A stretch of 64,000 nucleotides of DNA from Eledone cirrhosa (GCA_964016885.1 OZ024743.1:275032001-275096000), one strand, 5' to 3'. Shown: positions 17,641 to 56,682, counted from the first letter of the stretch. Notes: a model not told the origin generated them from the letters alone. Numbers and translations: made by a program.

Positions 17641-17743
17641 TTTTTTGTTCCAGAATCTAAATTGCCAATTATCTCTTTTATATTGTTCTAGAACATCATT
17701 GAATTGGGAAGAAAAAAAAAAAAAAAGTAATAATAATAGTAAC

Positions 17744-17782
<39 letters not shown>

Positions 17783-17783
<1 letters not shown>

Positions 17784-19945
17784 TTTTCTTTATTAAGCAC
17801 AAGGGTTTACATAAAGTAGACAATAAGGACAGTACAGGACAATACAGGACGGTACAAATGGGCATTTCTGCGTGTAAAAAAAACAGAGGATGAAATAAAA
17901 ATAACAAAGAAAAATTCCCCAATAGGGGGGGAGACTTCCGAGGGACATTTGTGGAGAAAGCCCATTAAAAGACCACAGTGGCCCTGACCACCAGGGCAAG
18001 TGCCCTCTCCCAGTTTTCCACCTTTAATTTACAGACACATACTCAGAGAAGGCCCATTCATTCGGGCCATACTTGCTTCTCTCACCCATCTTTCAACAAA
18101 ATGCTGGGAAGAGAGCACTTCCCTCTCTACCCTGATTTTCCTTTTCAAATGAAATTTGAAAAAGTTAATCAGGGCATCACCGAAGAGGTAAGTGCTCGTC
18201 TTCAGCCCTTTCAAACGTGTCCACCATACTATCTCTTTCACCATGGCCACCAGACAGATAAAAACTGCCTGCCCTTCCCGGCTAAAGGAAGAGGGCGGGG
18301 CAATCCTCACGATGGACTCAGCTGATAGCTGGATCCGTCCTACACGTGACAGCAGGTGTTCGACATAAACCCACAAGTCAGCAATGCTCGGACACTGGAC
18401 GAGTGCATGCAGGACGGTTTCGTCGCCCTGTGCGCATCTCGGACATGCCCGGCTGACGGCACCTCCATGCCTGTAAAGTTTATCCCGAACTGGAAAAGCA
18501 CCCCGGTAGCACTGCCAGGCCAGGGATTTCTGGAAGTTGTCCATAGGCCCCGGCCCGAAAGTCCTTCCGAAGAGATTGGCTAGTTGATTTTCGTCGACGC
18601 CTAGAGTTTCTCCAAGTACGTCGTCGCTCTTCCCCTCCACTAATCCCCTATAGAACGCCAAGGTGGAGTTTCCACCGATCACATTGCCCGATTGGTCGAG
18701 GGCTGTGAGCGCCTGAAGACATTCCAGTCTCCAAGCGCTCCCTCTCGGTCTTCGCTTGACCCAGGACTGTAGCTCCGTCAAGGAGACGAGCTGGGGAAAA
18801 ACGTGTCTAGCAAACGGCGACCACACCTGATCACCGTCGAGGAAGAGGTGGAGATGTCGTAGCCTGAGCGCGTGTCTGCGCATCATCAGCCACGGCATGC
18901 CCAGCCCTCCACGTAGCGGGTGTTGACAGCAGATGGACCGCCTGACCATCGGAGCGCGTCCCTTCCACAAGAAGCGAAAGAGCAAACGCTCCAGCGCAGT
19001 CAGGCGGGGCTTAGGACAAGGTACGACGGTCAGGCGGTATCAGATGACGGACGCGATGTACGCGTTAGCCACCTCCGCTCGACCTTTCAGGGATAGCTTC
19101 CTCTCGGCCCATTTCTGGGTGAGAGAAGCCACCCTGCTCGTCACCTCGTCCCAGTTTTTGTCCGTCTGGAGGTCTGGACCGAACCAGACCCCTAGTAATT
19201 TAACCGGTCCGTCCGTCCAGCGCCCGACGACGCTGTTGGACGGCATGGACCTGCCTCTCCAGGTGCCGAGCTGCAGGCCCACTGACTTTTCCTGGTTGAT
19301 CATTGCTCCTGTCACCGCTTCGTATTCTCTTAGTGTAGTGCCGATCGCCTCGATGTGTTTGGCGTTCGACACCACTACGGTGACGTCATCGGCATATGCT
19401 GACACGGATCTTCCGCATCCTATTTCGCGCGGGATCCCCCTCAACGTCTCCAGTTTGTGCAGTAATGGCTCAAGAGTCAATACGTACAATAGGGACGAGA
19501 GGGGACATGCTTGGCGGACTGAGCGCATGATGTTGAACGGTTCCGAAAGGTGACCGTTCACTCTCACTACAGAGCAGATGTTGCTGTGCATGGCAGCGAT
19601 CCAGCCTCTGAAGACGGGCCCAAAGCCAGCCGCCCTCAGGACTGCCGCTAGGTAACGATGGTCGACCCTATCGAAGGCTTTCGACTGATCTAAATTGATC
19701 AAAGACCCACCCGTGCCATGTTCCCTAGCTACCCTCTCTACGATGTATCGCATGAGGTGGAGGTTGTCGTGGATGGATCTGTCGGGAATGGCGCATGTCT
19801 GTGCCTCTCCCACCAGACCACCAACGACAAGCGCCAACCTCTTTGCTAGCACCTTGGCCAAAATCTTGAACTCTGTGTTTAGCAGAGTTATGGGCCTAAA
19901 ATTATCTATGTTATCCCCCTTGTTCGGATCCTTTCTCAGCAGCGC

Positions 19946-19949
<4 letters not shown>
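17783..19949 (-). mobile_element. Tx1/L1-clade LINE, 5'-truncated (related to 1802-4297)
   Basis: ORFs 19040-19960 (NFRPITLLN, DQSKAFDRV, AYADD) and 18029-18985 (CPRC..ETVLHALVQC); 3' UTR with AATAAA then (TTA)n. Confidence 0.9.
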
Positions 19950-20006
<57 letters not shown>

Positions 20007-20221
20007 CCGTCATTACTGATACAAGATTACAAGATTGTGTCAACTGTTGACTTTCAAGAGTTCGTATAGTTGAAGCCGTTCGTATTACAGTCCAGTATTA
20101 TTATAATTGCTTTACAGCATAGAGCTATGGCTCTCCACGCTCTGAGCTCAAATCCCGCCGAGGGATACATACATACATACATACATACATACATACATAC
20201 ATACATACATACATACATACA

Positions 20222-20252
<31 letters not shown>

Positions 20253-20423
20253 TGGCATTGATGCCTGTAAGACTCTCCATAAACTCTTGCCTGTGCGACC
20301 TATGTGGCTTGGTCTGTAGGTCAATGGCGGGTTTGAAATGTCACATGAGACACCGCCATCCAGAGAGGTGAACTTTTGTTGGACACTCATACGTCGGATA
20401 TCGACGGGGCAGTCCATCATCAT
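20253..20423 (+). mobile_element. RTE-BovB-type 3' terminal fragment
   Basis: [23 protein letters not shown]2H2-like terminus, followed by a short (CAT)n tail. Confidence 0.7.
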
Positions 20424-20580
20424 TTATATATATATATATGTGTTTGTGTGTGTATGTATGTTTATTGACATGGACCACCTGCTGTGGAAATGCAATTTGC
20501 CCGATTATGTAACTGCTGATAACACGTAATTTTCTGATCACTGCAGATTTAATATCTGTAGTGAAACATATTGCACTGAA

Positions 20581-20911: not shown

Positions 20912-21037
20912 TGCATGCATGTATGTGTAGTAGGTGGATTCATACATACATACATACACACATACACATACATACATACATACATACATACATACATACA
21001 TACATACATACATACATACATACATACATACATACAA

Positions 21038-21103
21038 ACAACCTTGCCACCAGGAAGGTGGCCGGTCAAAAAAAATATACTCGAAATTAAGAGAAAGAGA
21101 TAA
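21038..21103 (+). mobile_element. 66-bp 3' tip of the (TACA)n-associated R4/Dong-type LINE
   Basis: Near-identical to 25487-25551 and 26619-26682; (TACA)n on both sides. Confidence 0.9.
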
Positions 21104-21523
21104 CATACATACATACATCAAAAATTTTGCATCTAATAACTACATATACACATGTACAGATACAAAGCATATACACATGCACACATACAACTCAAAACAT
21201 CCACATCCACACATACAATAACATCCATATCTACAGATGCATGCATACATACATATCTACCTAGTTGATGTTGTGTAAATTCCAATGAGAGAGTCGTGTG
21301 TCTATGTTAGAAACCGACTCTCTCTCTATTGGTAAAACTTTGCGAAATTATAAAACCAGAAGAACATACATACATACGTACATACATACTTATATACATA
21401 CTTATATACATACATACATACATACATACATACATAACTTTGCGAAATTATAAAACCAGAAGAACATACATACATACGTACATACATACTTATATACATA
21501 CATACATACATACATACATACAT

Positions 21524-24500
21524 AAAATGGCGACCGTTGTGGTCAGTGTCCGATCATCGGACGTGTGTAATTACGGCTTACATGAAGGCAACATACCATA
21601 TATTGGAAAAAGTTGAGCTACATTACGCGGTAAGATTACATACAATAATTCTACATAAGTGTTTGAACTGTAAGTGTGTTGTAAAACACCTATTTATATG
21701 AACGATACATACACTTATGATATATGAACGATACATACACTTTAACATATAAATGCAACGTTGTTATATTACATTTATAAAGAAATATTACATTTATATA
21801 AAACACAGTTGTAGAATTAAAAACTAACTGAAAAGAAATATTACTCAAGCTGTGAATAACTTTAAATTTGATTCTGACAGAACTTTGTCGTAACTTTTAA
21901 AGAAGATCATCGACTATTTTGAAAAATAAATACGAAATATTAGTGAATAGACGAACTCATCATGGCAAAAAGTACAAGTCTCCTTCGACCAAATCGCAAT
22001 TACAACCGTTGTACACAGTGGAGCTACGAGCTTAACAAAGTATTATATGAAGCATACAAACAATCTGAACCCCAAAAGTTCGGTTTTATGCAAAGGCTAA
22101 AAACTTTATGGAACTCCAAACACCCAGAATTAGACTTTTCTCCAAAGCATTTAAATGAACAGGCAAAACGTATCATTAGATGTAAATTGATACATCTAAC
22201 GGAATCGAGTGATACTACAAATACAGCCCTTGTAGACAACCACCCCACCTCCACTGACAGACAAAGAGAATGGCCAGCTAAATCTAACAGTGAACAGCTC
22301 ACCAACAATTTTGCTGAAATTCATCCCACTTCCACTGAAGAACAGCGAGAAAGGTCAGCTGACTCTAGTAGTAATTGTCACCACACCAACAACGAGGCTG
22401 AAATTCATGACTCTACTGAACAAACAGAGCACCAAAAACTTGTGGGCTCCCTACAAGTGATATGGAATGATATGTTTCAAGAGATTCACAGCCTTAATGT
22501 GAGTGACAGACCATACAACACTAGAGTCAGTAAAGAACCCACTAAATTGGAATTGGAAGCGGTGAACGAAATAGCTGGCAATTATCTGAAGGCTATACGA
22601 TCTAAAGGTGTAGAAACGACATTTGAAACGCTTAATGTTTTGTTATATGTTTCAGCTGTCACATTGCTAGCATATAACAAACATCTAAAACCACGCAATC
22701 AAGATACAAACAGAAAGCCTGAACCAGCGTGGATGCGAAATTTAAAAACCAAAATTTTGTCCCTGAGACGAAGTATCTCACACATCGCAGTCGTTATGAA
22801 ATGCAACATAGAGAGCAACTTCACACAACACCAGGAAGACCTAAAGAAAAAGTTAGAGAGAAGATTTGGAGATACAAAATTTAAAACTTTGAACTCCAAA
22901 TTACACCAGTTGAAACAACAACTCACAGCTACAACAGAAAGACTAAAATATAAGTCAACAGCACATAAACGACAAGTGCTAAATAGATTGTTTGCCAGAG
23001 ACCCTAAATCAGTTTATTGCAGCTTCGGTGGCAAAAGCTCAATCTCTGTAAATGACACCCCTTCAAAAGAACAGGTTGAGAGCTACTGGAGATCTGTATG
23101 GGAAACGGATGACGGATTCAACAGACAAGCTAATTGGCTAAAAGAACTGGAACAGGACTACTGCCAACATGTCCAGACAAAACAATATGACATAGATGGG
23201 TCAATACTGGAAACAGCTCTACAGAAAATGTCGAATAGGAAATCGCCAGGCCCAGACCTCATTACAGGATACTGGTTGAAGAATTTCACTTTCTATCGGC
23301 AAGATCTCATACGGCTGTTTACAGAAACCATTAAGGGCACACAAGAACTGCCCAGATGGTTATCAACTGCCTCTACTCTCCTCATTCCCAAAAATAGCCA
23401 AACCACCCTTGCTAAAAATTACCGCCCAATTGCCTGCCAAAACATCATGTATAAATTATATACTGGGTGCCTTAACCTGTTCCTACAGGATCACTGTGCT
23501 ACCAACAACATCATAACACCTGAGCAAGCTGGTGGAAAGAGGGAGGTGTGGGGTTGCATAGATCACCTACTAACTAACAAAATTATTCAGGAAAAAACAA
23601 CAAAGAATCGCAGAAACATGACTGTCGTGTGGCTGGACTATCAAAAAGCATTTGATAGTGTACCTCATGGGTGGATTGTTAAGGCTTTACAGTTAGCTAA
23701 AGTCCCACAACCATTGGTAGCTGCTGTTGAACACCTGACCAAGAACTGGTACACCAGTTTGATCCTTAGAGGTGAGAAGGAGCAGGTTAAGACTGATAAG
23801 ATACATTACCAGAAGGGCATCTTTCAGGGTGATAGCTTGTCAGTGCTACTCTTCGTTCTCTCACTGAATCCACTATCTTACCTACTCAGGAAACAAGGTC
23901 GACAAAGAAGTGGGACCAGAAGTATCTCCCATCTTTTCTTTGTTGATGACCTGAAGTTGTATGGGCCAAATATCAATGACATCAAGAAACAATTGGACCT
24001 CATTACACAATTTTCAACCGACATCAAAATGAAATTTGGTGAGTCCAAGTGTGCATATTTGGCAGTAAAACGTGGAAGAGCTGTGCCCTCCTCTAGAAAT
24101 CTAGAGATGAACGGCCTGACAATACAACCTCTGCAGTCAGGTGACAACTACAGATATCTTGGACAGGATGAGAATGTCAGATATGATGGACCCATAAATA
24201 AGGAGAGAACCAGAACTGAATACCTCAGAAGAGTAAAGAAAATATGGTCATCAGAACTGTCAGCATACAACAAATACATTGCCCACAATACTTATGCTGT
24301 GCCAATTCTAACGCCAACATTTGGCCTACTGAACTGGTCATTGCAAGAACTAAGTGAGATGGATGTTAGAACTCGAAAACTTCTCAGTGTTACTGGGAAC
24401 TTTAACATCAATGGTGATGTGGATAGGCTATACTTCTCACGCAAGGAAGGTGGCCGGGGTCTAAAATCAATATTAACAACATATGAGACCCGGATAGTGA

Positions 24501-25551
24501 CACTGAAGCAACACCTTCAACAGAGGAAAAAGGTTGGCAACCATCTTGCCCAGGTTTATGACCATGAAAAAAGAAATATCATTGGAATAGCGACTGATCT
24601 GGAGGAGAGATATGGAATAAAGCCCGATATAAATCTCTCACCCAGAGAAATCGGAAGATCCTATTCAATGTTCAAACAAGAAAAAAAAATTGACCAATTT
24701 ACAGAAAAAGTTGTGCATGGATACTTGAGGTGTAAAAGACAGACCATAGAGGGGATAAATCACTCAAAAAGCCTGGCATGGAGTTCCGACAAGTTTATGA
24801 CATCACACCTTGAGGGATATCTCTATGCAATACAGGAACAAGAACTCCCTACCAAATATCTGCTGCACAAAAGAGGAGGGCCAGCAGCTGACAATAAATG
24901 TAGGCTATGTAAAACAAAGATCGAGGATGTAAGCCACATTGTTGCCAGCTGCGAAAGAATGTCATCTCGCTACTACCTCCCCATGAGACACGGTGGGATA
25001 GCTAGAACCATCTGGAACGCACTTCGGAAAACAAAATTAACAACAAACGAGGAAGAATATATTGAGACAGATGGCACTAAGGAATACTTGTGGAACCTGA
25101 AAATAAAAACTGCCACCAAATTAAAGCACAACCGGCCTGATATTGTAGTTTGGGACCACACATTGAAAACGTGTTCTGTTGTGGAGATCAGCTGCCCACT
25201 TGATGTAAACGTTGTCAGAAAAATACAGGAGAAGGAGGACATCTACGGACCATTGATGAGGAGTTTACAAATCCAGTATCCAAGATACACCTTTAGCTTC
25301 ATACCCATCATTATTGGTGCTACGGGTTATATACCAACCCGCTTGGACCAAAGTATGACTGAACTTGGATTTGCGGACAAAAAGCGCAGCTCCCTAATTC
25401 ATAGTCTACAAATGGCTGCGATAGCTGGCACCTTCAAAATTTGCAAAACATTCTTGCGATTCAAGGGATGACAATTTCTTTTCTTTTACAACTTTGCCAC
25501 CAGGAAGGTGGCCGGTCAAAAAAATATACTCAAAATTAAGAGAAAGAGAAA
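21524..25551 (+). mobile_element. Apparently full-length (~4.0 kb) R4/Dong-type RLE non-LTR retrotransposon inserted in (TACA)n
   Basis: Both junctions abut (TACA)n; single long ORF; short 3' UTR with a gccacc/ggtggc hairpin. Confidence 0.9.
21962..25471 (+). CDS. 1169-aa retrotransposon protein: reverse transcriptase + CCHC knuckle + restriction-like endonuclease
   Basis: KSPGPD, NYRPIAC, WLDYQKAFDSVPH, GIFQGDSLS, FVDDLKL, GGRGL, CRLC..HIVASC, NRPDIVV..VEISCP motifs in an uninterrupted frame. Confidence 0.92.
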   Translation: MAKSTSLLRPNRNYNRCTQWSYELNKVLYEAYKQSEPQKFGFMQRLKTLWNSKHPELDFSPKHLNEQAKRIIRCKLIHLTESSDTTNTALVDNHPTSTDRQREWPAKSNSEQLTNNFAEIHPTSTEEQRERSADSSSNCHHTNNEAEIHDSTEQTEHQKLVGSLQVIWNDMFQEIHSLNVSDRPYNTRVSKEPTKLELEAVNEIAGNYLKAIRSKGVETTFETLNVLLYVSAVTLLAYNKHLKPRNQDTNRKPEPAWMRNLKTKILSLRRSISHIAVVMKCNIESNFTQHQEDLKKKLERRFGDTKFKTLNSKLHQLKQQLTATTERLKYKSTAHKRQVLNRLFARDPKSVYCSFGGKSSISVNDTPSKEQVESYWRSVWETDDGFNRQANWLKELEQDYCQHVQTKQYDIDGSILETALQKMSNRKSPGPDLITGYWLKNFTFYRQDLIRLFTETIKGTQELPRWLSTASTLLIPKNSQTTLAKNYRPIACQNIMYKLYTGCLNLFLQDHCATNNIITPEQAGGKREVWGCIDHLLTNKIIQEKTTKNRRNMTVVWLDYQKAFDSVPHGWIVKALQLAKVPQPLVAAVEHLTKNWYTSLILRGEKEQVKTDKIHYQKGIFQGDSLSVLLFVLSLNPLSYLLRKQGRQRSGTRSISHLFFVDDLKLYGPNINDIKKQLDLITQFSTDIKMKFGESKCAYLAVKRGRAVPSSRNLEMNGLTIQPLQSGDNYRYLGQDENVRYDGPINKERTRTEYLRRVKKIWSSELSAYNKYIAHNTYAVPILTPTFGLLNWSLQELSEMDVRTRKLLSVTGNFNINGDVDRLYFSRKEGGRGLKSILTTYETRIVTLKQHLQQRKKVGNHLAQVYDHEKRNIIGIATDLEERYGIKPDINLSPREIGRSYSMFKQEKKIDQFTEKVVHGYLRCKRQTIEGINHSKSLAWSSDKFMTSHLEGYLYAIQEQELPTKYLLHKRGGPAADNKCRLCKTKIEDVSHIVASCERMSSRYYLPMRHGGIARTIWNALRKTKLTTNEEEYIETDGTKEYLWNLKIKTATKLKHNRPDIVVWDHTLKTCSVVEISCPLDVNVVRKIQEKEDIYGPLMRSLQIQYPRYTFSFIPIIIGATGYIPTRLDQSMTELGFADKKRSSLIHSLQMAAIAGTFKICKTFLRFKG

Positions 25552-25674
25552 ACATACATACATACATACATACATACATACATACATACATACATACATA
25601 CATACATACATACATACATACTTATATCCATACATACATACATACATACATACATACATACATACATACATACA

Positions 25675-25706
<32 letters not shown>

Positions 25707-25709
<3 letters not shown>

Positions 25710-26682
25710 CAATAGGATAGCCACTGATCTGGAGGAGAGATATGGAATAAAGCCTGATATAAATCTCTCACCCAGAGAAATCGGAAGATCCTATTCAATG
25801 TTCAAACAAGATGAAAAAAATTGACCAATTTACAGAAAAAGTTGTGCATGGATACTTGAGACGTAAAACACAGACCATAGAGAGGATAAACCACTAAAAA
25901 AGCCTGGCATGGAGTTCCGACAAGTTTATGACATCACACCTTGAGGGATATCTCTATGCAATACAGGAACAAGAACTCCCTACCAAATATCTGCTGCACA
26001 AAAGAGGAGGGCCATTAGCTGACAATAAATGTAGGCTTTGTAAAACAAAGATCGAAGATGTAAGCCACATTGTTGCCAGCTGCGAAAGAATGTCATCTCG
26101 CTACTACCTCCCCATTAGACACGATGGGATAGCTAGAACCATCTGGAACACACTTCGGAAAACAAAATTAACAACAAACGAGGAAGAATATATTGAGACA
26201 GATGGCACTAAGGAATACTGGTGGAACCTGAAAATAAAAACTGCCACCAAATTCAAGCACAACCGGCCTGATATTGTTGTTTGGTACCACACATTGAAAA
26301 CGTGTTCTGTTGTGGAGATCAGCTGCCCACTTGATGTAAACGTTGTCAGAAAAATACAGGAGAAGGAGGACATCTACGGACCATTGATGAGGAGTTTACA
26401 AATCCAGTATCCAAGATACACCTTTAGCTTAATACCCATCATTATTGGAGCTACGGGTTATATACCAACCCGCTTGGACCAAAGTATGACTGAACTTGGA
26501 TTTGCGGACAAAGAGCGCAGCTCCCTAATTCATAGTCTACAAATGGCTGCGATAGCTGGCACATTCAAAATTTGCAAAACATTCTTGCGATTCAAGGGAT
26601 GACAATTTCTTTTCTTTTACAACCTTGTCACCAGGAAGGTGGTCGGTCAAAAAATATACTCGAAATTAAGAGAAAGAGATAA
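25707..26682 (+). mobile_element. 5'-truncated second copy of the (TACA)n element (endonuclease domain + 3' UTR)
   Basis: Closely matches 24576-25551; ORF 25928-26602; upstream frameshift/stop; (TACA)n on both sides. Confidence 0.92.
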
Positions 26683-27185
26683 CACATACATACATACTTA
26701 CAAACATACATACATATTTACAAACATACATGCATACATAAATACATACATACATACATACATACATACATACATACATACATACATACATACATACAAA
26801 CATACATACATACATTAGATAATTATGGTTTGAATAACTTTAAACATGTATGTTTCCTTTATTGGGGTCTATCTTGAACACACCATCACCCCTGCTGCCA
26901 TATCAACAACAGGAACAAGATCATATAAGTGCCATAACTGAAAGATCCGATTTCTACCTAGTTTGGTGTGTATCAGTTTCCGGACATATATCCAGGTTAA
27001 TCAATGGCACTTTAGAATTAAAATGAAAGCAACATCTACAATATTTCCTAGGGAAGTATAAACTGGACTAGGTTACCCGTTGCCTTTTCCATTGAACTCT
27101 TTATTAAAAGCAAATATATTTATGATAGATAGGTGTAATGAACCACACAGATCAAGAGATATACACATATAATGGTCTGCTTATG

Positions 27186-43929: not shown

Positions 43930-46900
43930 CCTTTCTGCCTGTGTGTTTGTTTGTTTGTGTGTGTTCGTATACAGCGTGGTGATAATGCCACACAAGGGCC
44001 AAGTGGAATGGCGGATCCACAGATGGCTATGTAACCATACATTCGCCAATCCTCGATAAGAGTGTTTAAATATCGAACATAAACAGTTCGAATAACGGTG
44101 AAATGGAGACTAGAACGTCATGTGACAGACTCTCACCCAACAGGTGCCCCCTGGCTCAGCAGCAGGAACCTGACTGTCAACCAAATACTGCTGATGTTGG
44201 AGGAAGGAGAAGAAGGAAAGGGGGCAGAACCAACTGGACGAAAGAATTGAATAGAACTGTTATGCAATGTTACCTGAAAAGTAACCCCAAGGAGAGGGGC
44301 TACAGGAGATGGATGCATAACATCTGGAACAAGATTGGTTTATTTAAATTAGATGAACAAAAATTGGCCGGGCAGGCTCGGGTAATAAGAACTAATGGGT
44401 GGATAAGCGAGCTGAAACTGGAGGAACTGAGCAGAGAGAATGGCTTGGAGATGGCGGGTGTAGTATGCCAGACAAGCGAGCCAGTGGGAAATGAAGGTGA
44501 AGAGGTCCTGAGAACGGAGGAACCACCCGAAGCAGATAATGATCTGAATACTGAGATAAATAATACCTGGAACAGAGATACGGCCACTGAGGAGATGAAT
44601 GCTGACGGGCTAGGACAAGATTCGGTTGACATCCTAAATTTAGTGGTAGATGAATTGAACAATGATAGTGGGAGACCTATGAACCTAAGATTTGTAGACA
44701 GGAAAAAGTTAAAAGAAACAACAGCTAAGGTAAACAAAGTCATCCCATACCTTGAGGCGAGGAGCCTTCACCAGTGCAACAATATCCTCAAAGCAACAGC
44801 AAATACGGTGAGGAAACTACTTGGTATAAAAGCGAGAGGAAACAACAGACAAGAAAGAACAGAGCCGTGGTGGAAGAAACGAGTGGGCAAATCGGGGAAA
44901 TGAGAAATGACATAGGAAAGCTTGAGTCACTACTGAATGGGACACTAAAAAACATAGGCACTAAAAATAGACTGGAAATAAAGTACAAAACTAGGAGGAA
45001 AAAGCTAAATATTATCATAGAGGAACTGAAGCAACGCATTGTAGCAAAGAGTGCAAAAATCAGGCGATACGAGAACAGAGTCAGTCAGTATAAACAGAAC
45101 CGCATGTTCGACAACAACCAGAAGATGCTGTTTGGACAGCTTGAGGGGAAAGAAAGAGGCAACGACTTGATCCCTGGGGCGGAGCAAACTAAAACATTCT
45201 GGAGAGGAATATGGGAGCAGGATGTTAGACATAATGTCCAGGCAGGGTGGATTGAGACAGTACAGAGGGAGATCGGTGAGCAGGCACAACAACAAACTGA
45301 TTTGAGTATCACAGTTGAAACTCTTAAGGGGCAGGCCAAAAAACTAACCAACTGGAAATCACCAGGCCCAGATGGTGTGCAGGGGTATTGGATTAAACAT
45401 TTAACATCCCTCCACCCGAAGCTGACGGCCATGTTCAATGACTGCTTGGTGTCGGGTGAGGTGCCAGAGTGGTTGACAAAAGGTACCACAGTTCTGATAA
45501 TGAAAGACCGAATCAAGGGTAATGATGTTACCAACTATAGACCTATCACATGTCTGTCCGTAATGTGGAAACTGTTGACGAGCATTGTGTCTGAGGAAAT
45601 CTACCATCACCTCCACACAAACAACTTGTTACCGGACGAACAGAAAGGATGCCGAAAGAAGTCACGTGGTACAAAGGACCAGTTACTTGTTGATAAGATG
45701 GTAATGGGGAATTGCAGGAGGAGACACACTGATCTTGCCATGGGATGGATAGACTACAGAAAGGCATTTGACATGGTGCCTCATTCTTGGATCACCAAAA
45801 GCCTGGAGATCTTCAGGGTGGCGGATAACATCAGACAGTTGCTAGGCAGGAGTATGGGGTCCTGGGAGACAGAGTTGACATCAACTGGAGTATCCTTGGG
45901 AAGCGTGAAGATCAAGAGAGGTATCTTCCAGGGAGATAGCCTGTCCCCTCTGTTGTTTGTCCTTGCCCTGATGCCCTTGACCATTATGCTGCGAAAAGTG
46001 AGAGCAGGATACAAGTTGGGAAGGGGAGAGCTTACCATCAATCACCTCCTCTTCATGGACGATCTTAAGCTCTTCGGGAAAAGTGAGAAGGAGTTGGATG
46101 TGCTTGTTGACACTGTCCGTATTTTCAGCAGTGATATATGTATGCAGTTTGGTATTGGTAAATGTGGAGTCATTGTGATGAGGAGGGGTAGGTTGAGCAG
46201 AAGTAACGGGATCCAGATACCAACAGGTGAGATGATAAAGGAAATTGACTCTGAGGAAGGATACAAGTATTTGGGCGTTCTGGAGGCTGATGGCATAAAG
46301 AACAAAAAAATGAAGGAATTGTTAAGAACTGAATACATTCGGAGAGTAAGGAGCGTATTGAAGTCACATCTGAACAGCAGAAATGCCATAAGCGCAGTAA
46401 ATTCCCGAGCTGTGTCTATTATTAGGTACAGTGCGGAAATTCTGAGATGGAATGTTGCTGAACAAAAAGAAATGGATAGGAAGACTAGGAAGCTATTGAC
46501 TATCTACAACATGTTCCACAAGAGGAGTGATGTCGATAGACTCTACCTAAGGAGATCTGAGGGTGGAAGAGGTCTTATCAGCATAGAGGACTGTGTTCAG
46601 ATGGAGAAAAACAACCTATACAAATACGTGACCTATAGTAAGGAGCCAATGCTCAGAACTATACTGAAGGAGGGGGACAGTAGGCCAGGGGATGTCCAAG
46701 GAGGAAATAACATCAAGGAGGAAGAGCAGCCTTAAGGGAAAATCCCTTCATAGTACCTTCTTTGAGAAAACTGAATTTAGAGATCCACAGACATGGAACT
46801 GGTTGAGAAGAGGAGACCTCAAAAAGGCTACAGAAGGAATGCTAATGGCTGCGCAGGAGCAGGCCCTCAAAACGAAGTGGTTGAAGCACCATATTTACAA

Positions 46901-47575
46901 GGAGGAGGCTAGCCGACTGTGCAGGATCTGTGGAGAGAGAGAGGAGACTGTGGCTCACATTGTGTCCGAGTGTAAACACCTAGCCCAGACCCACTATAAG
47001 GGCTGGAGACACGATGTGATGGGCAAGGTGATCCACTGGCACCTGTGCAAAGTAAACAATTTACCACATTCTGAGAAATGGTATGAGCATAGGCCAGAGG
47101 CGGTGATGGAGAACAATCAGGTGAAGGTGCTGTGGGATTTTAGGATACAGACGGACAAAAAACTGGAACACAATAGACCTGACCTGGTGGTTGTGGACAA
47201 AGAAAAAAGATCGTGTCTGATTGTGGATGTGGCCTGCCCGTTCGACACGAGAGTGCAAGAGAAGGAGAGGGAGAAAATTAACCGATACCAGGACCTAAAG
47301 TGGGAGGTGAAAAGGATTTGGAACTGCCATGAAGTCAAAGTGATCCCGATTGTCATAGGCGCACTGGGGACTATCTCCAAAAGTTTCCAGGGATGGTTAA
47401 AGAAAATCGGCCACTTCACGCTTTTTGGAACGCTTCAAAAGGCATGCTTGCTTGGAACAGCAAGAACCCTCCGATACGTCCTGAATATCTGAGGCTGCAG
47501 GTAGTGGCTTGATATTCAATCCAACGGACTTTCCAGTTAACCAACATCAATGACTGAGATTCAAGGAATAACAAC

Positions 47576-48294: not shown

Positions 48295-48904
48295 ATGGTG
48301 GCTGCCAACTCGTTTTCGAGTACGGCCACTACTTTATATCCATGTAGGAGAACCCCTACCGATGCGTTGAAAGAGTGTGACATTTTATTCCAGCCAGCGA
48401 CTTGAAAACTCTAGTACAAACACTACACTTGTGACAATTATTGACACATAGTGCTGGGCCCTTGGTACCATCTGACGACAAGTGCAGAGAGATCTGCAGA
48501 TATAAAGCAATGCCTGTGCCGTGAAGCTTTTATAGTGAGCAAAGGCACTGCACAAAGCCAGTCCCACTCTCTTAACCAAGATGATATTTACCAAAAAGAA
48601 GAACAAGTCAACATCATTGGATACCATCAGGGTTGCAGGTGTTATATCAGAGTTTTCCTTCTCCTAGAATTCTGCCTTGACAAAGGCTAAGGGGTCATCT
48701 CTCCCGGTGATTTGGGATGGCCATTGACTCTTAAGAGCTCCGTTGCCCTTTGACAGGTTTTGTTTTTAGTCCTGCAGGATGTCCAAAGTCACCCTCCTCA
48801 CCAAGAAACCTTGGTGGGGTTGCCAGTTTAGTCGCCAACGACCCGGCCATGGGACAGGTTGTACTGGAATACATGTTACCAGTAGCACCAACTGGTGACC
48901 TGAC
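48295..48904 (-). mobile_element. Non-autonomous RTE derivative (5' UTR-like part joined to 3' end)
   Basis: Ends with [19 protein letters not shown]-like C2H2 remnant; 5' part has RTE-UTR-like taaactggcaacc and ctaggagaaggaaaactctg. Confidence 0.6.
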
Positions 48905-52689: not shown

Positions 52690-53150
52690 ATATACATGTA
52701 TGTATGTATGAATGTATGTATGTATGTATGTATGTATGTATGTATGTATGTATGTATGTATGCATGTATGTATGTATGTATGCATGTATGTATGTATATA
52801 TATATGTATGTATGTATATATACATACATGTATGTATGTATGTATGTATGTATTTATGTATGTATGCATGCATGTATGTATGTATGTATACATGTATGTA
52901 TGTATGCATGTATGTATGTATGTATGTATACATGTATGTATGTATGTATGTATGTATGTATGTATGTATATATACATGTATGTATGTATGTATGTATGTA
53001 TGTATGTATGTATGTATGTATGTATGTATGTATGTATATATACATGTATGTATGTATGTATGTATGTATGTATGTATGTATGTATGTATGCATGTATGTA
53101 TGTATGTATGTATGTATGTATGTATGTATGTATGTATGTATGTATGTATG
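52690..53150. repeat. (TATG)n microsatellite
   Basis: Direct inspection. Confidence 0.95.
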
Positions 53151-54919: not shown

Positions 54920-55880
54920 TTTATAGTGCTTTTATAGTGCCTTTACCCTCAGATTTTAAACCTGAACTTTAAAGCTAGTATTGGGATTCTTGTAATCTTA
55001 TGCTGGTTCTTTTACCTTTGATGGCATACTGCACATCCAAAGTTCTTTCTTGACATTTACTCATTGTTAACTTTTCAAATATATTTATTACACCTAATTA
55101 TTTTCCTAGTATCTTATTTTTTCTTCTAAGAATTTCCTTTTTTTATTCCCAACCTCTGCTCTAGCCTCGTTGATATATTTGTCAGCATCCTTAAAATAGA
55201 GAATAATTTCTTTCTTTTTTTTTTTCTTCCCTTTTTCCTGTTTTTTAGCTATTTGTGCCTACTGTCATTTTCTGCTATATATTTATGTAAACAAACATTA
55301 GTTGTCTTAAAGAGATTTTCTAATTGTACGAGACCACTTCCATTTTCTGTTCGTTGTAAATATAGTCTGTCGCTCTCTACTTCAGAATACTGTATTCTAA
55401 ACATAGTCAGTAAGCCTCCTTGTATTTTCTAGTCTCCTTGCTTCGTTCATATTCGAATTTATTACTATAAAAGTATAGCTATTTGCTGGTATGGCTAATG
55501 TATGACCCATTCTTTTATTTTTATAATTTATTTCCTCCCGAGACTTATGCATCAGTAATATTCTTGTCTGATTTTTCCCTTTTTATTCTGGAATGTTGTA
55601 TACTTCTTGTATATTCTATAGGCTTGTCTTTGTTTTAATTCCTTAATGCCAATATCTTTATCAAATTGTACAGCGAAGATTATGTGCATTTATAAATCTT
55701 TCTTAACCTTTGCCCATTTTTCTAGTCATATTTTCATACAGATAATATCCCAATAAAATCCTGCACCAGTTTTAATAAGTTGTCCAACTGGTTATCATAT
55801 TCGGCGAACAATTTTAAGTCGTCCGTGTATAAAATATGATTTATAACAACCCCTGACAGTTTTATCCACTACGTATTAGT
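54920..55880 (-). mobile_element. Old, decayed R4/Dong-type LINE fragment
   Basis: YTDDLKLFAE..QLDNLLKLV at ~55830-55760, downstream IKEL/KIRQEY-like remnants; possible further piece ~60400-60900. Confidence 0.6.
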
Positions 55881-56682
55881 CAGAGATATTAAAGCTAAAC
55901 AGAAGAGCAATTTTGAAAGGAAGCCTTCTCAAAATATTCCTTTATTAATGAGGATTTCTTGGAGATTTTAGCCAAGCATCCTATTTTTATAGGTGTGTGG
56001 CTGTTCTTTATCTTGCCATGGCGTGCTTAATAGAGCTAATTATATCTGGTGTTGTCTTACTCATAGTAAACATCTCCCATGGGCCATTACCAAACTTAGT
56101 TTAGAAGTCTATCTATTCCATATTTAATTTAATCTGCATGTTGCTGTTAACTTCAGTGCTGTGACTTCATTTATCAATTATAGAATTTTACAGCCATAAC
56201 TACCTCATCTATATACCTAATAGGGTAGACCTATTACCAAAGGAATTCCAGTCACGACCATCCAGTCTTCTTCCTAAGTACAGGAAATCTATGACCAAAT
56301 TATCCAACAAGTAAAAGTTCGCCTGTGCACAGTGTTTGTTCAAATTGATAACATTAAACCGTATCATTGGTTGTCATGTGATCTCCGCATAGTCTACACT
56401 TAGCTGTTCCACTGTTGTGTTTCATCTGTACAACGCTATCAGTATAACTGTTGTCAGTTAGCCCAAAGTAACCTCAGAATGATTTATGATCAAAGACATT
56501 CCAACCATGGTCATCCAGTTTTTATACCATTTAATCTATCTAAGATTATGGTGTTCAATGTACCCTCCCATTCTTTAAAGACAGAGGCGGGTAATTTGAA
56601 AAGAATTGGTTACTATTTCTAGTATGTTTACTTATCGTAGATGTTCTCTTGGCTTGAATATCTCATATATAGGTAATAAGGT

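Follow-up and report, generated by a model that had tools for sequence, protein, structure and literature searches.

We describe family A, an R4/Dong-type long interspersed nuclear element (LINE) that occurs as a cluster of copies in a 64,000-nt stretch of Eledone cirrhosa DNA (GCA_964016885.1 OZ024743.1:275032001-275096000; hereafter the window, with coordinates counted from its first letter). Thousands of copies sit in (CATA)n microsatellites, written (TACA)n where flanks were classed, in one orientation and one phase. As judged from sequence, they probably arrived there through the element's own protein, which would recognise the repeat, nick its TATG strand, and copy the element's RNA at that site.

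Three family A copies of different lengths lie in the same orientation in the window (Table 1), as a first-pass annotation had described. All three end in GAGA(A/T)AA followed by CA, with (TACA)n on both sides of each. Flanks were classed by best repeat unit over 20 bases 5′ and 16 bases 3′, with a 75% match threshold, in an unselected sample comprising the first places listed on contig C1, in two sets (for 12 3′ ends of the first set, the locus contained no 5′ junction). Sense (TACA)n made up 77 of the 84 family A 5′ flanks (19/20 and 58/64 in the two sets) and 82 of the 96 3′ flanks (27/32 and 55/64); two 5′ flanks out of 84 had the opposite orientation and five were unclassed. Among full-length copies, 19 of 20 5′ flanks were sense (TACA)n. 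The background, 39,920 20-mers from 20 evenly spaced 10-kb stretches (200 kb), contained 0.69% sense TACA and 4.5% (TA)n, a repeat that family A uses far less. Neither (TAA)n nor CA arrays occurred at any of the 96 family A 3′ ends. Because 5′ breakpoints differ from copy to copy, the 5′ repeat is not part of the element. The presence of (TACA)n at both flanks, against a background of 0.7%, thus marks the repeat as a target and not a tail alone, as had been claimed for the window copies. Two copies (L126 and L327) have a TGTA 5′ flank; L327 has two pieces that face opposite ways and resembles an inverted duplication.

A sister family, B, shares this location. (TACA)n was found in 29/33 of its 5′ flanks and 49/56 of its 3′ flanks, with (TAA)n at none of the 56 3′ ends, and 5,164 exact 3′ tags of family B occur genome-wide. 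The DNA between the 67-bp and the long family A copies of the window is a family B copy plus a 29-bp B repeat, rather than unique flank, which the first-pass annotation had overlooked. The 29-bp repeat is either a local duplication or an aborted insertion.

It is hardly credible that such flanks are products of local duplication, or that copies inserted at random and survived in repeats only. The cluster does contain one 100-bp local duplication, and the sample one likely duplicated pair, but breakpoints vary between copies and the copies are spread over many contigs. Survival would favour no single strand or phase, nor TACA over the commoner (TA)n, and the closest 39 copies are young. For the three window copies, local duplication is ruled out by their three different 5′ breakpoints and by the dispersal of their family, which numbers at least 4,305 copies.

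The exact 26-base 3′ tag of family A has 4,305 matches genome-wide (reversed control, 0), of which 3,199 run on as AWAACAYA, while exact 5′ tags number 296. The 64 unselected copies have a median identity of 97.3% to a full-length copy and a median length of 884 bp; six are full length. Over the last 299 bp, the best 39 matches have similar scores, just below the query itself, and we therefore regard these copies as young. A third TACA family, at ~60% amino acid identity, was considered and rejected, as it comprises decayed family A copies bearing the family A 3′ untranslated region (UTR).

The long window copy belongs to a short-5′UTR subfamily and is ~195 bp shorter than the 4.22-kb family A copies. 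Its 1169-aa open reading frame (ORF) is unbroken, and it encodes RHG where the 977-bp copy encodes RHD, both as first reported. The codon at position 1011 is GAT in all 20 full-length copies (drawn from the best matches) and in 70 of the 72 codons read at that place, and in two of these 20 the 1169-aa frame is intact and encodes RHD. This agrees with the suggestion that a consensus, rather than the window copy, may be the active form. The earlier description of the window copy as intact holds for the reading frame but not beyond it, with 12 shared positions distinguishing this copy from the three other copies with the longest frames. Given these differences and its unique G1011, the window copy is probably impaired, in a family that was active recently. 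All read depth at position 24993, from runs of the same and of another organism, carries A. A motif, GGA(C/T)GTG, is located ~17-34 bases inside the 5′ end of family A (window 21559-21565) and of four of five metagenome relatives (L236, L238, L239, and L240), though not of family B. We take it to resemble the Drosophila downstream promoter element, although its spacing varies.

Related elements of the same genome use a different repeat. A search with an insect Dong-like protein recovered two other families, T1 (with intact 1216-aa copies) and T2, which are 31-33% identical to family A over the region from the reverse transcriptase (RT) to the restriction-like endonuclease (RLE). Their 3′ ends lie in (TAA)n in 12/12 and 21/24 cases, respectively, and never in TACA. 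TAA was also found in 5/7 (T1) and 7/13 (T2) of their 5′ flanks and TACA in none, with 15 of 35 rows unmeasurable where reference pieces start inside elements. Thus, with T1 and T2 on TAA and A and B on TACA, related elements of one genome sort cleanly by repeat. The window itself contains a broken Dong-like element on the + strand (44070-47495; 42-46% to T1/T2 and 35% to A) and TAA-type Dong-like RT fragments on the − strand (55267-55961).

To place these families, rows chosen from at least 120 homologues (L251 was excluded as too short) were used in two quick maximum-likelihood trees, one of 47 rows with a Tx1 outgroup and one of 42 rows with metagenome proteins, supported by Shimodaira–Hasegawa-like approximate likelihood-ratio tests (SH-aLRT) only. 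In both trees, A, B, and 22-30 relatives form one branch (SH-aLRT 100), apart from T1, T2, and insect sequences. A and B are not mutual closest relatives within it. The nearest outside group comprises the TAA-flanked Dong-like families and insect proteins. Among the homologues listed, Argonauta hians provides the nearest named relative (62% over RT-RLE), sister in both trees, which points to an octopod as the likely host.

A metagenome scan yielded 33 loci, and 12 of the A/B branch were examined for arrays. Nine of these have one (CATA at two, CTTA at seven), three have none, and (TAA)4 was found in none of the 12. The two CATA loci share one source, and each has (CATA)n on both sides. The seven CTTA loci come from a second group of assemblies and have the array at both ends (one locus), the 5′ end (two), or the 3′ end (four, two of which represent one family). 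All of these arrays are sense-oriented and the 3′ junctions start at C; the phase is set by one junction whose last base is G. In the second source, the 3′ end of one family is joined head to tail with the 5′ end of another across a CTTA array, like the window cluster. In addition, a run from another organism contains a truncated copy preceded by (ACAT)n. Family A is therefore probably part of a Dong-like branch whose insertion sites changed from trinucleotide to tetranucleotide repeats. The tree suggests a single move from (TAA)n to C(A/T)TA before the A/B split, with later changes between CATA and CTTA.

The family A protein has the features of R4/Dong elements: one ORF with a non-long-terminal-repeat RT, a CCHC knuckle, and then an RH(D/N) motif and a PD..(D/E)..K RLE. 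This single-ORF architecture with a C-terminal RLE fits the R4/Dong-type LINE of the first-pass annotation. Besides the CCHC residues, R1009-H1010, P1059-D1060, and K1091 are invariant in the 69-row alignment. An AlphaFold model of the 1169-aa protein has a mean predicted local distance difference test score of 88.4, and its best matches in the PDB, by both sequence and fold, are R2 proteins. A three-helix domain at aa 20-75 is confidently predicted and likely represents the Myb/SANT-like domain reported for R4/Dong, whose N-terminus is described as a diverged Myb/SANT domain (PMC7998251). Pfam gave no Myb match in the ORF, and a fold search with a 67-aa N-terminal model returned unrelated generic helical proteins (best Z 5.1). 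We found no zinc finger N-terminally, whether in sequence, alignment, or model, and no apurinic/apyrimidinic endonuclease (APE) domain in the family A protein; its endonuclease is the C-terminal RLE. The linker that joins the N-terminal domain to the RT region, modelled with low confidence, contains an imperfect 81-bp internal duplication (window 22241-22408).

We propose that this protein would recognise the repeat and nick its bottom strand at G^TA, giving TATG^TATG, or TAAG^TAAG in CTTA users. The 3′-OH of the nick could then prime reverse transcription from the 3′ end of the RNA, by analogy with R2, for which target-primed reverse transcription is established. Synthesis would usually end early, as the 296 5′ ends against 4,305 3′ ends suggest, and the 5′ end may be joined via short microhomology, which averages 1.9 nt at 35 junctions (0.8 nt expected). 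Each insertion would leave repeat on either side, so that A, B, and a short element on the opposite strand could accumulate head to tail; such a pile-up would produce the cluster seen in the window.

Several points weigh against this proposal. The trees are quick and lack both bootstrap values and named R4, Dong, or Rex6 sequences. The metagenome evidence comes from two sources whose background repeat content is not known and whose contigs break at microsatellites. The flank sample comes from one stretch of one contig, holds exact 3′ 26-mer copies only, and includes at least one likely duplicated pair (L134 and L135). The TACA threshold was missed by 7/84 5′ flanks and 14/96 3′ flanks, often where the array is short or degenerate. 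The 41 informative copies gave no evidence of a target-site duplication (7 matches, 5.6 expected), which leaves the top-strand cut without a placement. Arrays are longer 5′ than 3′ (median 53.5 versus 17.5 nt, P = 1e-4; 41 longer, 23 shorter), an asymmetry not expected if copies simply inserted at random into arrays already in place. Orientation and phase would be the same if a (CAUA)n tail of read-through RNA paired with any nicked TATG strand. Finally, an unrelated element, X, has such arrays at both ends, so the arrays may be attractive to retroelements generally.

Element X is 607 bp long and non-coding, with 11,275 exact end tags. X and its relatives occupy the same arrays in the orientation opposite to A. 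They are cut at one end in 57 copies and at the other in three, and most cut ends adjoin the array. We rejected X as a short interspersed nuclear element partner of A, since the two have no sequence in common and X is truncated from the other end (57 versus 3). No tRNA was found in 21 copies of X. The constant end of X resembles that of a 3′ fragment at window 20252-20424, which motif likeness leads us to presume is RTE-like. This fragment directly follows an (ATAC)21 array, and its 5′ flank polarity is opposite to that of X. The window also holds a complete 607-bp X copy (48297-48903; 97% to L040) between TA-rich arrays, a minus-strand retroelement by its truncation polarity. Bipartite non-autonomous RTE elements have been described (PMC5786205).

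The behaviour of X bears on a different account of site choice, which we consider rather unlikely: the endonuclease would be loosely specific, and the site set by pairing of a read-through (CATA)n RNA tail with the nicked (TATG)n strand, so that the preference is inherited through the RNA. It accommodates an unrelated element that faces the other way and has these arrays on either side, and it predicts orientation and phase equally well. The family A 3′ UTR is short, lacks poly(A), and runs directly into the repeat. Moreover, short-5′UTR copies at unlinked loci (L032, L034, L038, L039, L040, L044, and L047, at 1490-1500) have a common CATATATA variant just 5′ of the element, a sign that the RNA may include flanking repeat. 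However, R4/Dong-type endonucleases are described as site-specific (PMC4640811, PMC7998251). The C-first phase, furthermore, is constant over families at 39-52% amino acid identity and over two repeat types, and none of the 96 family A 3′ ends entered the far commoner TAA or CA arrays. Recognition of the repeat by the protein remains our preferred reading.

The long 5′ arrays could mean either that the protein requires a long upstream repeat or that integration lengthens the array. Taken to its limit, the latter would have the element insert at short CATA seeds and build most of the upstream array through 5′-junction slippage or template jumping, making it a maker as well as a user of microsatellites. 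We judge this improbable, although several observations point that way. The 5′ arrays, up to 94 nt long, exceed both 3′ and background arrays (background median 12 nt, 95th percentile 20), and some 3′ flanks are only 3-10 nt. Three pure arrays of at least 24 nt occur in the 200-kb background, one adjoining an A copy and one a truncated X. Short element fragments resembling template-jump products lie 5′ of the 5′ end in L039, L047, and L051. Yet long pure arrays also lie beside X without an adjacent A or B (3/13), and the same asymmetry would follow if a protein needed a long upstream repeat and cut near its far end. Array building would, in any case, alter the required target length and not CATA as the target.

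Table 1. Features of the family A and B cluster in the window and of the protein encoded by its full-length copy (a slash within a sequence marks the junction).
Feature	Position	Strand	Remarks
(TACA)n array 5′ of cluster	20941..21037	+	
Family A 5′-truncated copy, 67 bp, 3′ UTR end only	21038..21104	+	98.5% to full-length A copy
Family B 5′-truncated copy; sister RLE LINE, ~50% aa identity to A; end AGAAGAA/CATAC	21119..21364	+	96% to full-length B
Last 29 bp of B, second copy, within 100-bp tandem duplication with its array	21436..21464	+	
(TACA)n spacer, 5′ flank of full-length A copy	21465..21524	+	
Family A full-length copy, 4,028 bp, short-5′UTR subfamily	21525..25552	+	
Single ORF, 1169 aa	21962..25471	+	
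N-terminal three-helix domain, aa 20-75, conserved W20 and W50	22019..22186	+	Model and alignment
RT domain, aa 475-726, FVDD	23384..24139	+	Pfam RVT_1, E 1.1e-24
CCHC zinc knuckle, C980, C983, H992, C997	24899..24952	+	Invariant in 69/69 aligned rows
G1011 in window copy	24992..24994	+	D in 41/69 rows, N in 27/69, G here only
RLE core, P1059-D1060, E1075, D1081, K1091	25136..25234	+	Alignment
(TACA)n spacer	25553..25705	+	
Family A 5′-truncated copy, 977 bp, RHD	25706..26682	+	96% identical to long copy
(TACA)n array 3′ of cluster	26683..26815	+	

Elsewhere in the window, Tx1/L1-type RT frames occur on the − strand (17728-20026), their end adjoining a (TAA)n array (17728-17782). A long (TGTA)n array with higher-order units spans 52713-53148; no A, B, or X copy matched alongside it.

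On balance, we lean towards an undescribed R4/Dong branch, present in several marine animal groups, that left (TAA)n for tetranucleotides, keeps a single cut phase immediately 5′ of the C in C(A/T)TA, has switched between CATA and CTTA, and may lengthen its own arrays. A genome in which TAA- and CATA-users are both active would then offer a natural series for finding what determines the target of an RLE retrotransposon. How such an element acquires a new target is a question of practical weight, with R2-type proteins under development for gene insertion (PMC13580325). The families provide comparable proteins on TAA, CATA, or CTTA, and a single genome contains intact young copies of the TAA and CATA types at least. 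Since CATA and CTTA users differ by one base of the repeat, domain swaps and RNA-tail swaps could separate protein recognition from RNA pairing. The findings also bear on the wealth of microsatellites and nested retroelement clusters in octopod genomes.

Among known systems, R2 provides the best sequence and fold match in the PDB and is the source of the mechanism assumed for A. It differs in its N-terminal zinc fingers and its 28S rDNA target, and identity is only 16-20%. Togen (NeSL-related, on (TG)n) and microsatellite-specific HERO are, as described, also RLE elements on microsatellites (PMC4640811), set apart by description as members of other clades on other repeats. The first-pass impression that no (TACA)n-targeting lineage has been described stands for R4/Dong elements in the literature we found, where no CATA- or CTTA-targeting member appeared; Repbase, Dfam, and the tables of Fell et al. 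2025 lay outside that search and may hold one. It does not stand for LINEs of other clades. Waldo (WaldoAg1, WaldoAg2, and WaldoFs1; R1 clade) is reported to target ACAY microsatellites, including (ACAT)n (PMC3812793). Waldo is of the APE type, whereas A has an RLE and no APE domain, and their common target thus represents convergence.

The closest likeness is to Dong of Bombyx mori, DongAg, DongBg, Darwinula Dong1/2, and "Dong-R4", which resemble A in their single ORF, RT, CCHC motif, C-terminal RLE, lack of an N-terminal zinc finger, three-helix N-terminus, and microsatellite on both sides. In Octopus vulgaris, Dong-R4 is reported to be abundant and to have been active recently (PMC13282606), and passages on octopus Dong-R4 in two papers catalogue it without mention of targets (PMC13282606, PMC8967140). 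B. mori Dong has a hepatitis delta virus (HDV)-like ribozyme (PMC3774820), at its 5′ end. At the 5′ end of A, there was no Rfam match to an HDV-like ribozyme, and two descriptor searches gave none at the 5′ junction and none clearly above shuffles, although they found none in a TAA-family control either. Over RT-RLE, A shares 28-33% identity with Dong-like proteins of insects and with those of the TAA-flanked families. According to PMC3812793 and PMC7998251, Dong elements insert specifically into (TAA)n, the latter giving this for "most insects, mollusks and cnidarians"; A, by contrast, targets (CATA)n and some relatives (CTTA)n, and its branch is separate in the tree. We file A as R4/Dong-type by architecture, and not as Dong in the narrow sense; like Dong, it is repeat-specific and would work in the same way.

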